From: Escherichia coli
GTDB taxonomy: Bacteria > Pseudomonadota > Gammaproteobacteria > Enterobacterales > Enterobacteriaceae
Assembly: GCF_048403405.1 (NCBI RefSeq)
Contig: NZ_CP183129.1
Strand: one strand, 5' to 3'
DNA: 64,000 nucleotides
Under the pieces are notes generated by a model. That model had not been told where the DNA came from. It saw only the letters and a program-made list of their open reading frames with translations, and searched no databases. The position numbers and the translations under genes were made by a program. Positions 1-49,210 of this stretch are shown here, piece by piece (positions within the stretch are counted from its first letter, which is position 1; every line of letters starts with the position of its first letter).

Positions 1-883
1 ATTTGTCTTCGCTCGCCTCTACGGTACGGGTATCAGTCTGACGCGGCATCGGCGCAGGTGCCCACTCCACCAGACCATCCAGCATATGATCGACGCCGAA
101 GTTACCCAGCGCAGTACCAAAGAATACCGGAGTGATTTCGCCCGCAAGGAACAATTCTTTGTCGAACTCGTTAGACGCGCCTTTCACCAGCTCCAGTTCA
201 TCACGCAGCTGCTGCGCCAGATCTTCACCAACCGCAGCGTCGAGATCCGGGTTATTCAGCCCTTTAACAATACGGACTTCCTGAATGGTGTGGCCTTTAC
301 CGCTCTGATAAAGATAGGTTTCATCTTTATAAAGGTGGTAAACGCCTTTAAACAGCTTGCCGCAGCCAATCGGCCAGGTGATCGGTGCGCAGCCGATTTT
401 CAGCTCGTTCTCAACTTCATCGAGCAGTTCCATCGGGTCGCGGATATCACGGTCAAGTTTGTTCATAAAGGTGAGGATCGGCGTATCGCGCAGACGGGTA
501 ACTTCCATCAGCTTGCGGGTACGATCTTCAACACCTTTTGCGGCGTCGATAACCATCAGGCAGCAGTCCACCGCCGTCAGGGTACGATAGGTATCTTCCG
601 AGAAGTCTTCGTGCCCCGGGGTGTCGAGCAGGTTAACCAGGCAATCGTGATACGGAAACTGCATCACAGACGTAGTAATGGAGATCCCACGCTGCTTTTC
701 CATCTCCATCCAGTCCGACTTAGCGTGCTGGTTGGAACCACGGCCTTTTACTGTACCGGCGGTCTGAATGGCCTGTCCGAACAGCAGCACCTTCTCGGTG
801 ATGGTAGTCTTACCGGCGTCTGGGTGAGAAATAATTGCAAAGGTTCTTCTTTTCGCTACCTCTGCGGCCAAAAGGCTTGTCAT
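1..883 (-). CDS. prfC: Peptide chain release factor 3 (RF3), 5' part; gene runs off the window start
   Basis: My own minus-strand translation from the ATG at 883-881 gives [49 protein letters not shown]...DTPGHEDF (GTPase motifs). It is absent from the ORF track because it is open at the window edge. The 86-988 + ORF is its antisense shadow. Confidence 0.93.
822..835. repeat. att core copy (prfC-body side)
   Basis: GGGTGAGAAATAAT is identical to 49057-49070. Flanking bases diverge on both sides. Confidence 0.85.
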
Positions 884-1041
884 AATTGTTGTCTCTTTGA
901 TTATGTACAATCATATGTACAAAGAAAAATTCATGCCGCTGATTGTACATTTTGGAGGTATCAGAGCATAGCAGAACATGATCAGTAGGTGTATTTGTAG
1001 CCAAAGAACATTTGTACATGCAGCAATCTTTGTTCCATTGA

Positions 1042-1061
1042 CACTGTTTATTCATACAGTT
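1042..1061. promoter_or_regulatory. LexA (SOS) box 1
   Basis: CTGT-tttattcat-ACAG: CTGT at 1044-1047, 8-nt spacer, ACAG at 1056-1059. This fits the CTGT-N8-ACAG consensus. Confidence 0.7.
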
Positions 1062-1069
1062 AAAAATAA

Positions 1070-1089
1070 CACTGTATACAAACACAGTG
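1070..1089. promoter_or_regulatory. LexA (SOS) box 2
   Basis: CTGT-atacaaac-ACAG: CTGT at 1072-1075 and ACAG at 1084-1087. It ends 16 nt before the dinI-like ATG. Confidence 0.75.
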
Positions 1090-1102
1090 TAGAGGGATTT
1101 TT

Positions 1103-1351
1103 ATGCGTATTGAGATCTGCATAGCCAAAGAGAAAATGACTAAAATGCCAAACGGTGCTGTGGATGCGTTAAAGGAAGAATTAACTCGACGCATCAGTAA
1201 GCGTTATGACGATGTAGAGGTGATCGTAAAAGCCACCAGCAACGATGGCCTTTCTGTTACGCGCACCGCCGATAAAGATTCAGCTAAAACTTTTGTTCAG
1301 GAAACTCTGAAAGATACCTGGGAGTCTGCTGACGAGTGGTTTGTTCACTAA
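1103..1351 (+). CDS. DinI-family DNA-damage-inducible protein (prophage copy)
   Basis: 82 aa. MRIE.CIAK...WESADEWFV matches the remembered DinI pattern (MRIEVTIAK...ETWESADDWFV). An AGAGGG RBS is upstream and LexA boxes precede it. Confidence 0.85.
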
Positions 1352-1419
1352 TTAACACGTAAAATCGGTAACGGCTGGAAATCATTCAATACTCGCACTA
1401 TCGGAAGTTCACCAGCCAA

Positions 1420-1458
1420 CCGCAGCACGTTCTTGCATACGACGTGTCTGCGGTTTTT
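1420..1458 (+). terminator. Rho-independent terminator after the dinI-like gene
   Basis: Stem CCGCAGCACGT...ACGTG(T)CTGCGG followed by TTTTT. Confidence 0.6.
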
Positions 1459-1777
1459 CAACCATTCAGATACAGCACTCTCATCACATTCATTCTTCCG
1501 CATTAAAGTATATATGACCATATCACCTTAATATTTTTCTTCTTCAGATAAAAATTGTTATCTATGTATACTTTTAAACCGAATCCGTGTAGAGTCTCTA
1601 CCTAAGTTAGTTCACAGCTACCCCTTCAGTTTGCGCCATTAACTTCCTGACTTTTGCCGCTATCTGTAAGCATTCCTGTATACCTGAAACTACAGGGTTC
1701 ATCTACGAACTTTAAGAACACCCAGGATAAAAATTGTCAACTATATTATATATAACACCATACTAATTCGAGGCTAT

Positions 1778-36294: not shown

Positions 36295-37110
36295 TCAATG
36301 AACGGTATCGAGCAGCTTTAACAGCTCAGGGAATCGGGATTCGAAGAAATGCGGCTGCGTCTCGCGCGGATTTGCAGGACTGGTGATGTTCTTGCCGAAC
36401 ATGCAGCCTTTCGCGGTCAGCGACCAGAATTTTTTGATGTTGTTAATCGCGGTACGACTGTATCGTTCGCGTTGTTCAACGATCCCCAGCTTCGCCATCT
36501 GGTGATATGCCTGATTAGCCGTCAGGCGGATACCATACTGCTTCAGCAGTGCACTCAGCGACAGCGTAGGGCGGCTTGAACCATCTGGCGCATCAGCAGG
36601 TGCATCAATGGCATAGATCGGCATAAGTTCAGGAAGACCAGCTACCTTTGATAATTTCTGGTATGCACCAAGTTTCGAGGAGTTTGACAGATTTAGAGTC
36701 TTTGCTGCTGATTCAAGCAGAATGACCCCGGATTTAATTTTGTCGGATGTGGTTTCTTCTGGTGATGAATTATGAAGCGCATCAAAAGTACGTATCACTT
36801 TTAAGCTGAATGCCGGGCTGATCCACATTGCATATGCATAGACCAGCTCTTTACAGACATACGTCCCACCATTGCGCCCCTGAATGGTGATGACAGGAAT
36901 ACTACGGGAATCTCCCGTAGTTTCTTCTTCCAATAATTCCACAAGAGCCTTCGTTTCAGGACGACGCATAAACTCGTGAACTTCCAGCGAACGGGAGGAG
37001 CGATTCTCACCAGCGGCAAGAAGAGCAGCTTTCTGAAGGTCGTTAAGACAGTAGTTAGATTCGAAGTACTGGCGCACAGAAACGCCATCAATTACAAGCA
37101 ACTGATTCAT
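36295..37110 (-). CDS. KilA-N domain protein (antirepressor-like)
   Basis: The ATG at 37110 follows GGAGAA. The N-terminal pattern ...GGTYVCKELVYAYAMWISPAFSLKVIRTFD is typical of KilA-N. Confidence 0.65.
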   Translation of the reverse strand: MNQLLVIDGVSVRQYFESNYCLNDLQKAALLAAGENRSSRSLEVHEFMRRPETKALVELLEEETTGDSRSIPVITIQGRNGGTYVCKELVYAYAMWISPAFSLKVIRTFDALHNSSPEETTSDKIKSGVILLESAAKTLNLSNSSKLGAYQKLSKVAGLPELMPIYAIDAPADAPDGSSRPTLSLSALLKQYGIRLTANQAYHQMAKLGIVEQRERYSRTAINNIKKFWSLTAKGCMFGKNITSPANPRETQPHFFESRFPELLKLLDTVH

Positions 37111-37272
37111 TGGTTTCTCCACAAATTTTTATCCACGAGCGGGACTGCACTCCCTTTTCGTTGATGCAGGATGAACTTACTGCGATTTTTAATAGTTATC
37201 AAGGATACACTGTTCATAAATACAGTATCTTTAACGAGGTAATACCCAAATTTAGGGTGTTGCTCAATTCCG

Positions 37273-37668
37273 TTACCGAGTTGCTAATTTGCAACTCGCT
37301 TTTTCGTACTTACTGATAGTGATCTCGACCTTCCCCTCCGGGATAACCGGTCCCCACTCCACCAGCATTCTTTTCACCTGACTGTCGTCTTCCCACACAC
37401 CCGCGTGGGTCAGGGCGTCAAACAGCGCCTTGTTATAGTTGTCCAGATCGCGGATCCGGTTATCCGGAGGAAACAACACGATCTCCACTGAAGCAGGTGC
37501 CGACGTTGGTTTTGGCAGACGACGTAACTGCTCAACTATTGCTGCACACGCCGCGCTCTGGAATTTTCGCCCCGCCGCGCTTATCAGGCTCTTACCAGCA
37601 AACGCCCCTTTGTTGGGGTGTCGCCAGTACGTGTTCACGCTGGTCGGAAAAGGCAGGATCAGCTTCAT
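37273..37668 (-). CDS. rusA: RusA-family Holliday-junction resolvase
   Basis: 131 aa. ...PFPTSVNTYWRH...RDLDNYNKALFDALTHAGVWEDDSQV... carries the RusA catalytic Asp motif. Confidence 0.85.
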   Translation of the reverse strand: MKLILPFPTSVNTYWRHPNKGAFAGKSLISAAGRKFQSAACAAIVEQLRRLPKPTSAPASVEIVLFPPDNRIRDLDNYNKALFDALTHAGVWEDDSQVKRMLVEWGPVIPEGKVEITISKYEKASCKLATR

Positions 37669-37991
37669 ACTTTCAGGCCCCTCTCATGTAACCAGTGGGC
37701 TGCACGCAGCCTGGCGTTTTCCTCACCGGCAAGCAGTGAGCGGATAATCCCGACCGCCTCGCTGTCGTCGTCCTTCACCACGGTATGAAGCGTGATCCCC
37801 CGGGCCACACCACGCTTTATCGTGATGACGCCTTTTTTCTCCAGTGCGCGAAGATGCTCCACCGCTGCATTCACTGAACGGTATCCCAGCATGGTTGCCA
37901 CCTCCTGATTGGTTGGCGGGAAGCCACGTTCTTTCTGATAAGAAATCAGCATATCCAGCACCTGCTGCTGGCATTGAGTTAAAGTCGTCAT
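37665..37991 (-). CDS. LexA N-terminal DNA-binding-domain protein lacking the S24 peptidase domain
   Basis: 108 aa. LTQCQQQVLDMLISYQKERGFPPTNQEVATMLGYRSVNAAVEHLRALEKKGVITIKRGVARGI parallels the LexA N-terminal wHTH. There is no Ser/Lys protease part. Confidence 0.75.
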   Translation of the reverse strand: MTTLTQCQQQVLDMLISYQKERGFPPTNQEVATMLGYRSVNAAVEHLRALEKKGVITIKRGVARGITLHTVVKDDDSEAVGIIRSLLAGEENARLRAAHWLHERGLKV

Positions 37992-41894: not shown

Positions 41895-42569
41895 ATGAAA
41901 ACAATCCATGACATCCGGCGGTCTAACGCCAGAAAACTGAGAGATGGTGTTGGCGGAAATTCATCCTTTGCCACCATGATTGATCGCGAGCCAACCCAAA
42001 CCAGCAGGTTTATGGGGGATGGCGCTACTAAAAATATCGGTGACAGCATGGCACGGCACATCGAAAAATGTTTCGACCTGCCTGTCGGATGGCTTGATCA
42101 AGAACACCAGACAACGAACATCACAAAAAAACCTGATGTTTCAATCACTAACAAACAAATAACGTTAGTCCCTGTCATATCATGGGTACAGGCCGGAGCA
42201 TGGAAAGAAGTTGGCTATTCTGAGGTTGATTTGAGCACAGCAGAAACGTATCCCTGCCCTGTACCCTGTGGCGAAATGACTTATATCTTGCGGGTGATTG
42301 GTGATTCAATGATTGATGAGTACCGCCCTGGAGACATGATTTTTGTTGATCCCGAAGTCCCTGCCTGCCACGGTGACGACGTTATTGCATTGATGCACGA
42401 TACAGGCGAAACCACCTTCAAGCGATTGATAGAAGATGGAACACAGCGTTATCTCAAAGCATTAAACCCAAACTGGCCTGAGCCTTACATTAAGATTAAC
42501 GGTAATTGCTCTATAATTGGTACAGTGATTTTCTCGGGAAAACCAAGAAGATACACAATAAAGGCCTAA
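41895..42569 (+). CDS. cI: CI-type repressor (HTH + S24 LexA-like autopeptidase domain)
   Basis: 224 aa. It has an Ala-Gly cleavage-site context (VQAGAW), a catalytic Ser (VIGDSM) and a Lys (TFKRL). Confidence 0.88.
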   Translation: MKTIHDIRRSNARKLRDGVGGNSSFATMIDREPTQTSRFMGDGATKNIGDSMARHIEKCFDLPVGWLDQEHQTTNITKKPDVSITNKQITLVPVISWVQAGAWKEVGYSEVDLSTAETYPCPVPCGEMTYILRVIGDSMIDEYRPGDMIFVDPEVPACHGDDVIALMHDTGETTFKRLIEDGTQRYLKALNPNWPEPYIKINGNCSIIGTVIFSGKPRRYTIKA

Positions 42570-48826: not shown

Positions 48827-49046
48827 TACTCACCTTGTACAAATCGCAAAACACCTCTGCTGCTTTGTACATTATGTACAAGCATATGTACAGATTTTTG
48901 ATGAAAGCAACCTGATCGATTTAAAGTTACATGAAAGAATTTTCAATTAAAGAAGCCACATAACCATATGTATTTAAATGAGTTATATAACCAGACCTCA
49001 ATTAACTGAAAGGATTTTGAAAGAGTAAAAGAGCTTTAATTTGGGA

Positions 49047-49121
49047 TTAATTATTGGGGTGAGAAATAATGGCAAAAGTGCGGCGCTTCGCCACCTCTTG
49101 CAAATAAGGAGACAACGTCAT
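49047..49121 (-). pseudogene. prfC: Displaced native 5' end of prfC (24-codon stub)
   Basis: The minus strand from ATG 49121 reads [22 protein letters not shown] then NN-stop. This is the K-12-type RF3 N-terminus up to the att core, followed by phage sequence. Confidence 0.85.
49057..49070. repeat. att core copy (yjjG side)
   Basis: GGGTGAGAAATAAT is identical to 822-835. Confidence 0.85.
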
Positions 49122-49210
49122 AATTCTTTCTTCTTGAGTAAGCGGCATCGCGCCGCGCTTGTTGAAAACGAAAAATTGCGGCTATTTTACCCATCAACGG
49201 GGGGAGGCAA

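Follow-up and report, generated by a model that had tools for sequence, protein, structure and literature searches.

At one edge of a lambdoid prophage, in the 64-kb stretch of Escherichia coli DNA analysed here (the window), positions 1038-1459 form what is probably, with a rough probability of 0.75, a LexA-repressed and self-contained cassette, from which a DinI paralogue acting on RecA filaments would be made during the SOS response. The properties shown by the DNA and its comparison with related loci are site quality, promoter geometry, the boundaries of the cassette, conservation and family membership. The features of the locus are the following:

822..835, no strand assigned: att core GGGTGAGAAATAAT, located within the prfC 5′ end; no longer string is common to both prophage ends.
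1038..1043, plus strand: -35 hexamer TTGACA of the cassette promoter, from a promoter scan; the conserved mobile block has its left boundary here.
1042..1061 (core 1044-1059), no strand assigned: predicted distal LexA operator, 20-mer CACTGTTTATTCATACAGTT, filling the -35/-10 spacer.
1061..1067, plus strand: -10 region, either TAAAAA at a 17-nt spacer or AAAAAT at an 18-nt spacer.
1070..1089 (core 1072-1087), no strand assigned: predicted proximal LexA operator, 20-mer CACTGTATACAAACACAGTG, covering the predicted start at about 1074.
1092..1096, plus strand: Shine-Dalgarno motif GAGGG, read from the sequence, 6 nt 5′ of the ATG.
1103..1351, plus strand: DinI-like gene, 82 aa, WP_001217539.1 in RefSeq, identified by Pfam, PHROG and PDB matches.
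1352..1458, plus strand: 3′UTR with a structured RNA, here called element X (about 1366-1458), recognized by fold energy, covariation and a covariance model.
1373-1378 and 1412-1417, plus strand: arms of hairpin 1 of element X, with the conserved loop CATTCAATACTCGCACTATCG at 1383-1403.
1420-1453, plus strand: hairpin 2 of element X, with the loop TTCTTGCATACGA, followed by U5 at 1454-1458.

In the first-pass annotation, two sites of the form CTGT-N8-ACAG had been placed in front of the DinI-like gene. Exact matches are indeed present, CTGTTTATTCATACAG at 1044-1059 and CTGTATACAAACACAG at 1072-1087, and both fit the E. coli-type SOS box, that is, a 16-bp palindrome CTGT-N8-ACAG with an A/T-rich centre; the proposed spacing of 12 nt holds, while the second box ends 15 nt, and not 16, before the ATG (1103). 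In the 64-kb window the pattern is seen 6 times against 0.67 expected, a count reached in none of 100 shuffles. Scores were also obtained from a weight matrix made of 25 E. coli LexA operators, whose training range is 12.8-26.6 bits with a median of 19.5. Only three 20-mers of the window fall within the range of operators, namely those at 1042-1061 (22.3 bits), 1070-1089 (18.7 bits) and 37208-37227 (21.4 bits), and a score of 18 bits was never attained by this matrix in shuffled sequence. In particular, the distal operator lies above the median of the known operators.

Both boxes overlap the predicted promoter of the gene. The best candidate of the promoter scan is TTGACA-18-AAAAAT, a near-consensus sigma-70 promoter with 10 of 12 consensus matches, and the elements follow one another in the order TTGACA, box 1, -10, box 2. 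Beside the third LexA box (37208-37227), the consensus scan found no sigma-70 promoter. The distance between the centres of the two boxes is 28 bp, and in relatives it ranges over 24-28 bp; as helical phasing is not fixed, cooperative binding is not implied. Reading both sites as real LexA operators placed on a promoter is supported at the sequence level.

The two-operator layout is conserved well beyond this prophage. In close relatives, the CTGT/ACAG arms of box 1 are fixed and its spacer is variable. Across genera, 14 of the 18 subfamily loci have a distal box near -58, and 61 of 63 MFVE-type cassettes have one as well. For the proximal box, the CTGT...CAG columns are invariant in a cross-genus alignment of 17 sequences, and 76 of 80 DinI-family loci have a box there. 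The TTGACA -35 hexamer is nearly invariant across genera, relatives also have an A/T-rich hexamer at the -10 position, and an AGGAG/AGGG Shine-Dalgarno motif is conserved in the cross-genus alignment A2. The layout was found in Escherichia, Shigella, Pantoea, Trabulsiella, Mixta and Erwinia, and in phages 1720a-02, PhiR12_2 and BP-4795. It is shared, moreover, with a DinI subfamily of just 31% protein identity: the MFVELVYDKRN-type prophage genes, which we take to be the MsgA type and to which the phi80 'dinL' is related, have the same design, with TTGACA, one box near -57, another near -33, and an ORF of the DinI family (about 80 aa) followed by element X. Only one box, near -37, is seen at the chromosomal loci and at other distant loci of the DinI family.

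That the 82-aa ORF encodes a DinI-family protein, as the first-pass annotation had it, is borne out by a match to Pfam PF06183 with E 1.2e-19 (70.8 bits against a cut-off of 24.2, covering positions 1-63 of the 63 in the profile). Further matches are to PHROG 189, 'RecA filament binding protein DinI', with E 4e-31 (profile positions 71-149 of 151), and to the PDB entries 1GHH/7YWA with E 8e-13. The residues by which E. coli DinI contacts RecA, L13, L21, E24 and E69 together with W71, D76, W77 and F78, correspond to M15, L23, E26 and D71 and to W73, E78, W79 and F80, so that all eight positions are identical or conservative. The score of 72.5 bits is below the cut-off of 111 for the chromosomal-DinI equivalog (NCBIfam NF007893), hence a biochemistry identical to that of chromosomal DinI is not guaranteed. 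By these matches the protein is a DinI paralogue, in line with its RefSeq name, 'DinI-like family protein', and it would be expected to bind or stabilise RecA filaments and to modulate their coprotease function.

The cassette moves as a unit. Among 64 related loci, the block of homology has its left ends at 1035-1038 and its right ends at 1445-1462, boundaries that coincide with the -35 hexamer and the terminator and between which the cassette, from promoter to terminator, spans 1038-1459. It was found in at least 5 different flanking (upstream) contexts. Of 5,426 complete E. coli genomes, about 1,500 carry it, as do many lambdoid and Stx phages; the number of matching places per genome has a median of 2 and rises to 9, partial matches counted. 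Its GC content is 42.7%, against 49.8% for the prophage, and the DinI-like gene is oriented opposite to the late operon. In other words, the same unit, with its own predicted promoter and its own terminator, recurs in varied contexts, and the best explanation is that 1038-1459 is a self-contained accessory cassette ('moron') at the att-proximal end of lambdoid prophages. The position of the prophage edge was rightly recognized: the att core, which marks the end of the prophage 202 bp left of the cassette, is repeated at 49057-49070, and prfC has been rebuilt, its N-terminus here differing from the displaced original 5′ end at the far end of the prophage.

Element X occupies most of the 3′UTR, whose fold energy is -31.9 kcal/mol (z -3.3). 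Its covariation is extensive: 92.5% of the cells are paired, both partners have changed in 12 of 19 pairs, and none of 500 shuffles did as well; 122 G-U cells favour the plus strand. The covariance model, in which the sequence of the window is included, gives 113 bits on the plus strand and 9 bits on the minus strand. The loops CAAUACUCGC... and UGCAUACG are conserved, though the way of collecting sequences accounts in part for the invariance of loop 1 in the alignment A4. Hairpin 2 and the U5 that follows it would act here as an intrinsic terminator, as predicted from the sequence; in most copies of the element the U-tract after hairpin 2 is missing. In enterobacterial prophages, element X trails at least two DinI subfamilies, those of 31% protein identity, each at a fixed distance from the stop codon, as it starts 34 nt past the stop in the present type and 53 nt past it in the MFVELVYDKRN type. 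The full element is present in 59 of 80 loci picked by protein alone, a DinI ORF lies upstream of it in 87 of 101 cases, and nearly all E. coli have, in the spacer of ecpE and ykgJ, an orphan copy with no dinI ORF.

A search of Rfam with both strands of the 3′UTR returned no family, the only match being a sub-threshold one to CssrB on the minus strand with 24 and 22 bits against a gathering threshold of 76, and a literature search with the loop sequence of the element found no paper. Element X does not seem to have been described before, and it is not in Rfam. It is not a homologue of the Klebsiella RNA DinR, or of the 3′UTR of chromosomal dinI, as the covariance model found nothing in Klebsiella and other chromosomal dinI loci. 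A conserved structured RNA is found at the 3′ end of a dinI-family mRNA with predicted LexA control. We suggest, tentatively and with rather little confidence, that the SOS-gated transcript delivers this undescribed RNA of two covarying hairpins, possibly as a regulator, and that the LexA operators would gate the RNA too.

Several known systems resemble the cassette in part. Chromosomal dinI of E. coli and other enterobacteria (1GHH, 7YWA) shares fold family, length and RecA contacts with the 82-aa protein, and both genes, that of the cassette by prediction, are monocistronic, with a LexA box by the Shine-Dalgarno motif or start site and a terminator of their own. The two proteins, however, are 49% identical, the cassette has a further box, located in the spacer of its promoter, its 3′UTR is different, and it is phage-borne and mobile. 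In the Salmonella Gifsy-1, -2 and -3 prophages, a DinI homologue likewise lies behind a LexA box, with the gfoA/gftA antirepressor operon, and mitomycin C leads to accumulation of the protein in the case of Gifsy-2 (Lemire et al. 2011, PMC3121763). It is part of the Salmonella SOS regulon, and nalidixic acid raises the expression of prophage dinI homologues 4.6- to 23-fold (PMC8072944). The Gifsy arrangement differs in having one box (in Gifsy-1, TACTGTGTTTATATACAGTG at -37) instead of two, in its location in the early region rather than at the att end, and in a protein identity of 42.5%; the repressor CI, moreover, is of the S24 type here, and the cassette has no downstream ORF. Specifically, the 105-nt stretch from the stop codon (1351) to the terminator (1420-1458) has no plus-strand ORF, so that a Gifsy-like small antirepressor downstream was discarded.

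In phage 186 Tum, PSP3 and Fels-2, a LexA-controlled antirepressor is fused or adjacent to a DinI-like half, and PHROG 189 spans both; the 82-aa protein is the DinI module alone, with no antirepressor half. Being DinI-only, it sets the cassette apart from LexA-controlled antirepressor operons of the type of Gifsy gfoA/gftA, 186 tum and N15 antC. Two LexA sites on one promoter are common to the cassette, the colicin genes, lexA, recN and GIL01 P3, but the boxes overlap or abut in those systems and are separated here by the -10 region (12 nt); the spacing in relatives of the cassette is 24-28 bp, and no co-repressor is known for it. Tandem LexA boxes in colicin genes go together with tight repression and a late onset of induction. 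As to Klebsiella, the start site of dinI is covered by a LexA box, LexA binding to this gene was seen by ChIP, and the dinI transcript gives rise to DinR, an Hfq sRNA derived from the 3′UTR that represses ftsZ (PMC10907235). Both dinI-family transcripts thus have a structured conserved 3′ RNA, LexA control being predicted in the present case, although the two RNAs have no homology in sequence or structure and most copies of element X have no U-tail.

The mechanism that we propose starts from an undamaged lysogen, in which host LexA would sit on both operators. With one operator in the -35/-10 spacer and the other over the start site, LexA would block both the binding of RNA polymerase and initiation. 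Following DNA damage, RecA filaments would trigger LexA self-cleavage and the cassette would be derepressed, yielding a monocistronic RNA of about 385 nt that ends at the hairpin-U5 of 1420-1458. We infer LexA binding and SOS inducibility from the quality and placement of the sites; two strong operators would probably give tight silencing and late expression, deep in the SOS response. The DinI paralogue, which keeps the residues for the RecA filament groove, a site also used by LexA, UmuD and lambda-type CI, would then accumulate, stabilise RecA filaments and compete with slowly cleaved substrates such as UmuD and CI-type repressors. As a result, mutagenesis and prophage induction may be damped in the lysogen, for its own phage and for co-resident ones alike. 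Since the 3′ RNA element is highly conserved, the protein may not be the sole payload.

What this activity is for can be read in more than one way. One possibility, tentative as it is, holds that the cassette specifically sets the induction threshold of its own phage, with the SOS-made protein slowing the cleavage of the resident CI through RecA. The repressor is suited to this role: the view of CI as a RecA-stimulated self-cleaver agrees with its sequence, since it carries a Peptidase_S24 domain with the Ala-Gly cleavage site, the GDSM serine and the KR lysine, and would not be a non-cleaving repressor. The idea is physically plausible, because elements of the RecA groove are common to DinI and lambda CI, and a phage DinI limiting induction has already been proposed for Stx2a phages (PMC8456039). 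Strong double operators would also postpone expression to deep SOS, when CI would be cleaved. The statement that the cassette is next to CI, on the other hand, does not hold, as the S24-type CI lies at 41895-42569; the distance is about 40.5 kb in the prophage and, measured across attP, about 6.7 kb in the circular phage, and the gene is outside the wiring of the immunity region. An effect on RecA would act in trans on all RecA substrates and not on this CI alone. The one published genetic test of prophage dinI homologues, by non-polar deletion in Gifsy-1 and Gifsy-3, gave no significant change in induction (PMC3121763); as the Gifsy repressors do not undergo cleavage, however, it does not bear on the cleavage of CI. 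The cassette is also mosaic and common to many phages and contexts, not special to this phage, and, given how widespread it is, a general accessory (moron) function fits at least as well as phage-specific tuning. Such a function could be a benefit to the host, which is conceivable but far from assured: an extra dose of DinI would aid the lysogen after DNA damage, as RecA filaments would be made more stable and UmuD cleavage, mutagenesis and a prolonged SOS response would be kept in check, with any effect on prophage induction incidental. The moron architecture with its lower GC and the high copy number speak for a host benefit, together with the presence of a viral-region DinI-like gene among the groups tied to the emergence of quinolone resistance in E. 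coli (PMC10575684) and with a dinI-like locus of CFT073 that co-varied with SOS genes on microarrays (PMC2817434). These association studies are correlative, however, and chromosomal dinI already provides the function.

Other alternatives concern the RNA and the reading of the boxes. That the two-hairpin 3′ element is the main or an additional payload, regulatory or stabilising in the manner of Klebsiella DinR, is rather unlikely, yet it has substance in the occurrence of the element at fixed distances behind two divergent subfamilies, in covarying stems with many G-U pairs and conserved loops, in the persistence of the orphan copy and in the precedent of DinR (PMC10907235). The general lack of a U-tract is, however, atypical for the 3′ end of an Hfq-type sRNA, homology to chromosomal dinI 3′UTRs is absent, part of the loop-1 invariance is a collection artefact, and the element could be a simple structure for stability or termination, or else a module boundary prone to recombination. 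Quite improbable is a private circuit that host RecA cannot switch off, in which the boxes are read, perhaps in addition to LexA, by a phage protein of 108 aa encoded at 37665-37991. This protein consists of a LexA DNA-binding domain with no cleavage domain and is 43% identical to LexA residues 1-86; in its recognition region, S39, N41, A42, E45, R64 and G65 are kept, these being presumably the residues by which LexA contacts DNA. It is found together with the cassette in cdtI, 2H10, mEp460, 1720a-02, PhiR63_1 and Stx2c phages, and there is a precedent in gp6 of GIL01, a truncated LexA homologue at a phage promoter with tandem LexA boxes (PMC6182141). Co-occurrence is nonetheless partial, since the protein is also present in SfII, SfIV and SfV and many Stx1a/Stx2a phages with the cassette are absent from its list of matches; besides, it has the change E44V and no known dimerisation domain. 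Most improbable by far is that the palindromes are not LexA sites and represent chance repeats, a leftward terminator, integrase-arm sites or a control element of prfC. Box 2 and a T-run were in fact flagged as a terminator-like hairpin on the minus strand (-10.6 kcal/mol), and the boxes are 159-202 bp from the prfC ATG, in agreement with the earlier estimate of about 160-200. Chance, however, is ruled out by the shuffles and by operator-grade scores far beyond it, and the CTGT/CAG arms are kept across genera while the spacers vary. Integrase-arm sites are rejected because the arm-type repeats, present at both prophage ends, are of another motif, TGTACA, and the boxes move with the cassette into contexts with neither prfC nor this att arm; for the same reason, and with no consensus-like minus-strand promoter near the boxes in the promoter scan, control of prfC is unlikely. 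The reading of 1038-1459 as a LexA-repressed cassette for a DinI paralogue is the one we retain.

As a LexA-controlled prophage DinI homologue, the cassette adds little to what is known, as such genes are already published for the Salmonella Gifsy phages and the gene of the cassette is annotated in thousands of genomes. Its value is comparative and lies in a fixed design (strong promoter, spacer operator, start-site operator, DinI-family ORF, structured 3′ RNA) that is maintained across lambdoid/Stx phages and other enterobacterial prophages. Several copies are common in E. coli strains, and this bears on poly-lysogens, including Shiga-toxin producers, in which the cassette may affect the thresholds, dependent on RecA, at which induction, toxin release and mutagenesis set in under antibiotic stress. 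In addition, it draws attention to an uncharacterised RNA element whose regulation is predicted to be shared with the SOS response. If this were a regulatory RNA, be it a 3′UTR-derived sRNA, a sponge or a cis stabiliser, the tandem LexA operators would gate an RNA as much as a DinI-like protein, and prophages would inject an RNA regulator into the SOS response of their host.

The cassette at window 1038-1459 is, as judged from its sequence, a LexA-operated DinI-family moron, that is, an autonomous phage accessory unit of a known kind, whose promoter and LexA control are predicted. The two CTGT-N8-ACAG sites indicated by the first-pass annotation are present at 1044-1059 and 1072-1087, separated by 12 nt, with 15 nt between the end of the second site and the start codon (ATG) of an 82-aa ORF. 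Six matches to this pattern occur in the window against 0.67 expected. When scored with an approximate 20-bp weight matrix derived from 25 E. coli LexA operators, only three sites in 64 kb fall in the operator range, namely 1042-1061 (box 1, 22.3 bits), 1070-1089 (box 2, 18.7 bits) and 37208-37227 (21.4 bits), the remaining three matches to the pattern having poor scores and G/C-rich centres. No site of at least 18 bits was found in dinucleotide shuffles of the window, and the observation of LexA sites is confirmed as far beyond chance. The third operator-grade box, CACTGTTCATAAATACAGTA, is flanked by rusA and by a gene with a KilA-N domain (36295-37122, minus strand); it lies upstream of the gene for the Q antiterminator and is kept in a related prophage (L001, 47216-47235); a consensus promoter sought beside it was not detected.

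Features of the cassette and of the surrounding prophage
822-835 and 49057-49070: att core GGGTGAGAAATAAT, 14 bp, inside the prfC coding sequence
1038-1043, plus strand: -35 hexamer TTGACA of the predicted promoter (consensus scan)
Ending at 1067: predicted -10 element, AAAAAT with an 18-nt spacer or, equally, TAAAAA with a 17-nt spacer (consensus scan)
Near 1074: predicted transcription start
1092-1096: SD sequence GAGGG, upstream of the ATG
1103-1351, plus strand: DinI-like ORF, 82 aa (Pfam DinI, RefSeq)
1420-1453: G/C-rich hairpin (-20 kcal/mol), followed by U5 at 1454-1458, at the end of the 3'UTR
37665-37991, minus strand: LexA DNA-binding-domain-only protein, 108 aa (LexA comparison)
41895-42569: CI repressor, 224 aa, with a Peptidase_S24 domain and the QAG, GDSM and FKRL motifs

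From the positions of the hexamers in the consensus scan, box 1 fills the entire -35/-10 spacer of the predicted promoter, and box 2 begins 3-5 nt past the -10 element and overlies the predicted start site. The stop codon is followed by an untranslated stretch of 105 nt, no ORF being found between it and the terminator hairpin, and transcription is predicted to yield a monocistronic RNA of about 385 nt. Assignment of the encoded protein to the DinI family is well founded: it matches Pfam DinI over its full length (E 1.2e-19), PHROG 189 ('RecA filament binding protein DinI') and, in the PDB, both E. coli DinI (1GHH) and the RecA-DinI complex (7YWA; E 8e-13), and RefSeq names it 'DinI-like family protein'. 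Its identity to E. coli DinI is 49%. Cryo-EM work has identified L13, L21, W71, W77, F78, E24, E69 and D76 as the DinI residues required to stabilise the RecA filament (PMC9926225). In an alignment to solved DinI, their counterparts are M15, L23, W73, W79, F80, E26, D71 and E78, all eight identical or conservative. Because its score of 72.5 bits falls below the 111-bit equivalog cut-off for chromosomal DinI, the protein is, at the level of sequence, a DinI paralogue and not chromosomal DinI itself.

The cassette belongs to a lambdoid prophage of about 48 kb inserted into the 5' end of prfC in E. coli. As had been proposed, prfC is rebuilt, phage DNA supplying a new N-terminus and the original being left at the far end beside the integrase gene. 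Specifically, phage DNA (836-885) takes the place of prfC's promoter and first 14 codons, the original 5' end lying at about 49071-49125 on the minus strand. The cassette also lies at the prophage edge, beginning 202 bp inside it, and the late genes occupy the opposite strand. TGTACA-type repeats lie in the gap between cassette and prfC and occur again at the integrase end, so that they are probably arm-type sites at which the integrase binds attP; TGTACA-containing 8-9-mers (TATGTACAA, TTGTACAT) are seen at 902-922, 943-950, 1012-1019 and about 48840-48900, in both orientations and in both prophage arms.

Among 5,426 complete E. coli genomes, 472 have the junction of prfC and cassette, and 1,512 contain 80% or more of the cassette. 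An identical DinI-like protein is encoded by phages cdtI, 2H10 and PhiR63_1, and proteins 94-99% identical by mEp460 and many Stx1a, Stx2a, Stx2c and Stx2d phages. In 80 IMG/VR loci, a highly redundant set, and in other genomic loci, the region homologous to the window starts at 1035-1038, at the -35 hexamer, and stops at 1445-1462, at the terminator; these are classic moron boundaries, and they hold in at least five unrelated upstream contexts. At 42.7%, the GC content of the cassette is lower than the 49.8% of the remaining prophage. Three loci (L086, L090 and L131), under the titles Chryseobacterium sp., Candidatus Saccharibacteria MAG and Vagococcus sp., also contain DinI-like cassettes of enterobacterial type together with LexA boxes of E. 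coli type, most likely through assembly or bin contamination.

Close relatives share fixed CTGT and ACAG arms but differ in the centre of box 1. Of 80 DinI-family loci from a collection of species-level genomes, 76 are preceded by one or more operator-grade boxes. Where identity to the window protein is 51% or lower, a single box at about -37 is nearly always seen; in the subfamily with an identity of 56% or higher, 14 of 18 loci, spanning Escherichia, Shigella, Pantoea, Trabulsiella, Mixta and Erwinia, have two, at about -58 and -32. Both boxes are likewise present in phages 1720a-02, PhiR12_2 and BP-4795 (protein identity 60-79%), whereas Klebsiella phage P18-100 and Gifsy-1 have one each. 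The same two-box promoter is found in 61 of 63 cassettes of the MFVE-type DinI subfamily, whose proteins begin MFVELVYDKRN and are only 31% identical. As the layout recurs across genera, phages and so distant a subfamily, it is old, has been selected and typifies DinI-family cassettes of prophages, and is no peculiarity of this phage. In some prophages, for example one from IMG/VR (L169, 10842-12851), an MFVE-type cassette and a pair of umuD-like and umuC-like genes (the latter of the Y-family polymerase kind) stand back-to-back, which links two RecA-filament clients in one accessory region.

Operator quality, promoter geometry, autonomy of the unit and family membership are thus established for the cassette. 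In a lysogen, host LexA would sit on both operators, and occupancy of either should block RNA polymerase; RecA-stimulated cleavage of LexA would then derepress the cassette. Two strong operators would be expected to give little leakage and late induction, and GIL01 P3, a phage promoter with tandem LexA boxes, shows delayed expression (PMC6182141). Related genes are under similar control: Gifsy prophage dinI homologues lie behind a LexA box, the Gifsy-2 protein accumulating upon mitomycin C (PMC3121763), the Salmonella SOS regulon includes prophage dinI homologues whose box lies 19 bp from the ATG (PMC8072944), and Klebsiella dinI, where a LexA box overlies the start site, is LexA-bound in ChIP (PMC10907235). 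Once made, the 82-aa protein would bind the RecA filament groove, stabilising filaments and competing with substrates that are cleaved slowly, the groove bound by DinI being also used by LexA, UmuD and lambda CI (PMC9926225).

The first-pass annotation went further, suggesting that the phage tunes its own induction threshold through a DinI-like gene next to CI, an idea stated earlier for Stx2a phages (PMC8456039). The adjacency is incorrect, as CI is located at 41895-42569. The interpretation itself is partly supported: it is plausible on physical grounds and this CI belongs to the cleavable class, but the module is shared and would act in trans on all RecA substrates. Moreover, in the only genetic test in prophages, non-polar deletions of the dinI homologues carried by Gifsy-1 and Gifsy-3 did not significantly affect induction, although the repressors of Gifsy phages do not undergo cleavage (PMC3121763).

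Outside the interval first annotated, and within the DinI-like transcript, lies a conserved two-hairpin RNA element (1366-1458, plus strand), whose stems covary and whose loops are conserved. In an alignment of 48 sequences its structure is 92.5% paired, with 12 of 19 pairs changed on both sides; none of 500 shuffles equals this, and slid controls pair at 25-60%. The folding strand is the dinI strand, because 122 G-U cells would be mismatches on the other, where pairing drops to 81.4%. A 22-nt loop pattern used as an IMG/VR search key matched 117 prophage stretches. Sufficient sequence upstream is available for 101 of them, and 87 of these have a DinI-family ORF whose end lies exactly 53 nt upstream (81 loci) or 34 nt upstream (5 loci). 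As these sequences were gathered via the loop, its invariance in the alignment is partly by construction, and 80 loci selected by protein alone were therefore taken as a control: 59 have the full element, 8 a partial or diverged copy (hairpin 2 alone, or loop 1 changed to CACCCAATACTCGCTATATTG) and 13 none. The element accompanies two divergent DinI subfamilies in prophages and is also found 3' of diverged DinI-like genes in Pantoea and Trabulsiella; a covariance model of the element, which included the window sequence and gives rough E-values, did not find it in chromosomal dinI 3'UTRs, including that of Klebsiella. In phages HK446 and mEp234 the element-containing part of the query matches at or after the tail-fibre gene with no dinI matched there, so that the element can occur without a DinI-family ORF.

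The cassette search also gave some match in 5,382 of the 5,426 complete E. coli genomes. Mostly this is a piece of 152 bp, corresponding to window 1294-1445, that sits without annotation in the ecpE-ykgJ spacer; K-12 C600 (L162, 2501-2652) is one example. This orphan copy combines a decayed coding part, about 75% identical, with a 3'UTR that is 92% identical and has compensatory changes in hairpin 2; it is a fossil of the cassette's 3' end. It lies directly downstream of the ecp fimbrial operon. For the element, an Rfam 15 search returned no matching family, and the loop sequence was not found in the searchable literature. Sub-threshold matches to CssrB, a Shigella chromosomal sRNA, fall on the strand opposite the terminator region (window 1421-1558 and L162 2628-2696, both minus; 24 and 22 bits versus a gathering threshold of 76), and reflect either a distant relative or chance. 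The U-tract after hairpin 2 is missing in most copies. The element could serve as a stabiliser or terminator, be processed to a product that acts in regulation, or mark a conserved joint between modules.

The 108-aa protein is 43% identical to LexA residues 1-86, with a nearly unchanged recognition helix (SVNAAVEHL versus SPNAAEEHL in LexA), and an S24/cleavage domain is absent from it. It occurs in 61 phage records, among them SfII, SfIV, SfV, mEp460, cdtI and Stx2c phages, many of which also carry the cassette. A possibility is that it acts as an uncleavable LexA mimic; phage GIL01 offers a precedent in gp6, a LexA homologue that is likewise truncated (PMC6182141).

The two-operator design is documented here across DinI subfamilies, and the leads worth following are the undescribed 3' RNA element and the protein reduced to the LexA DNA-binding domain.
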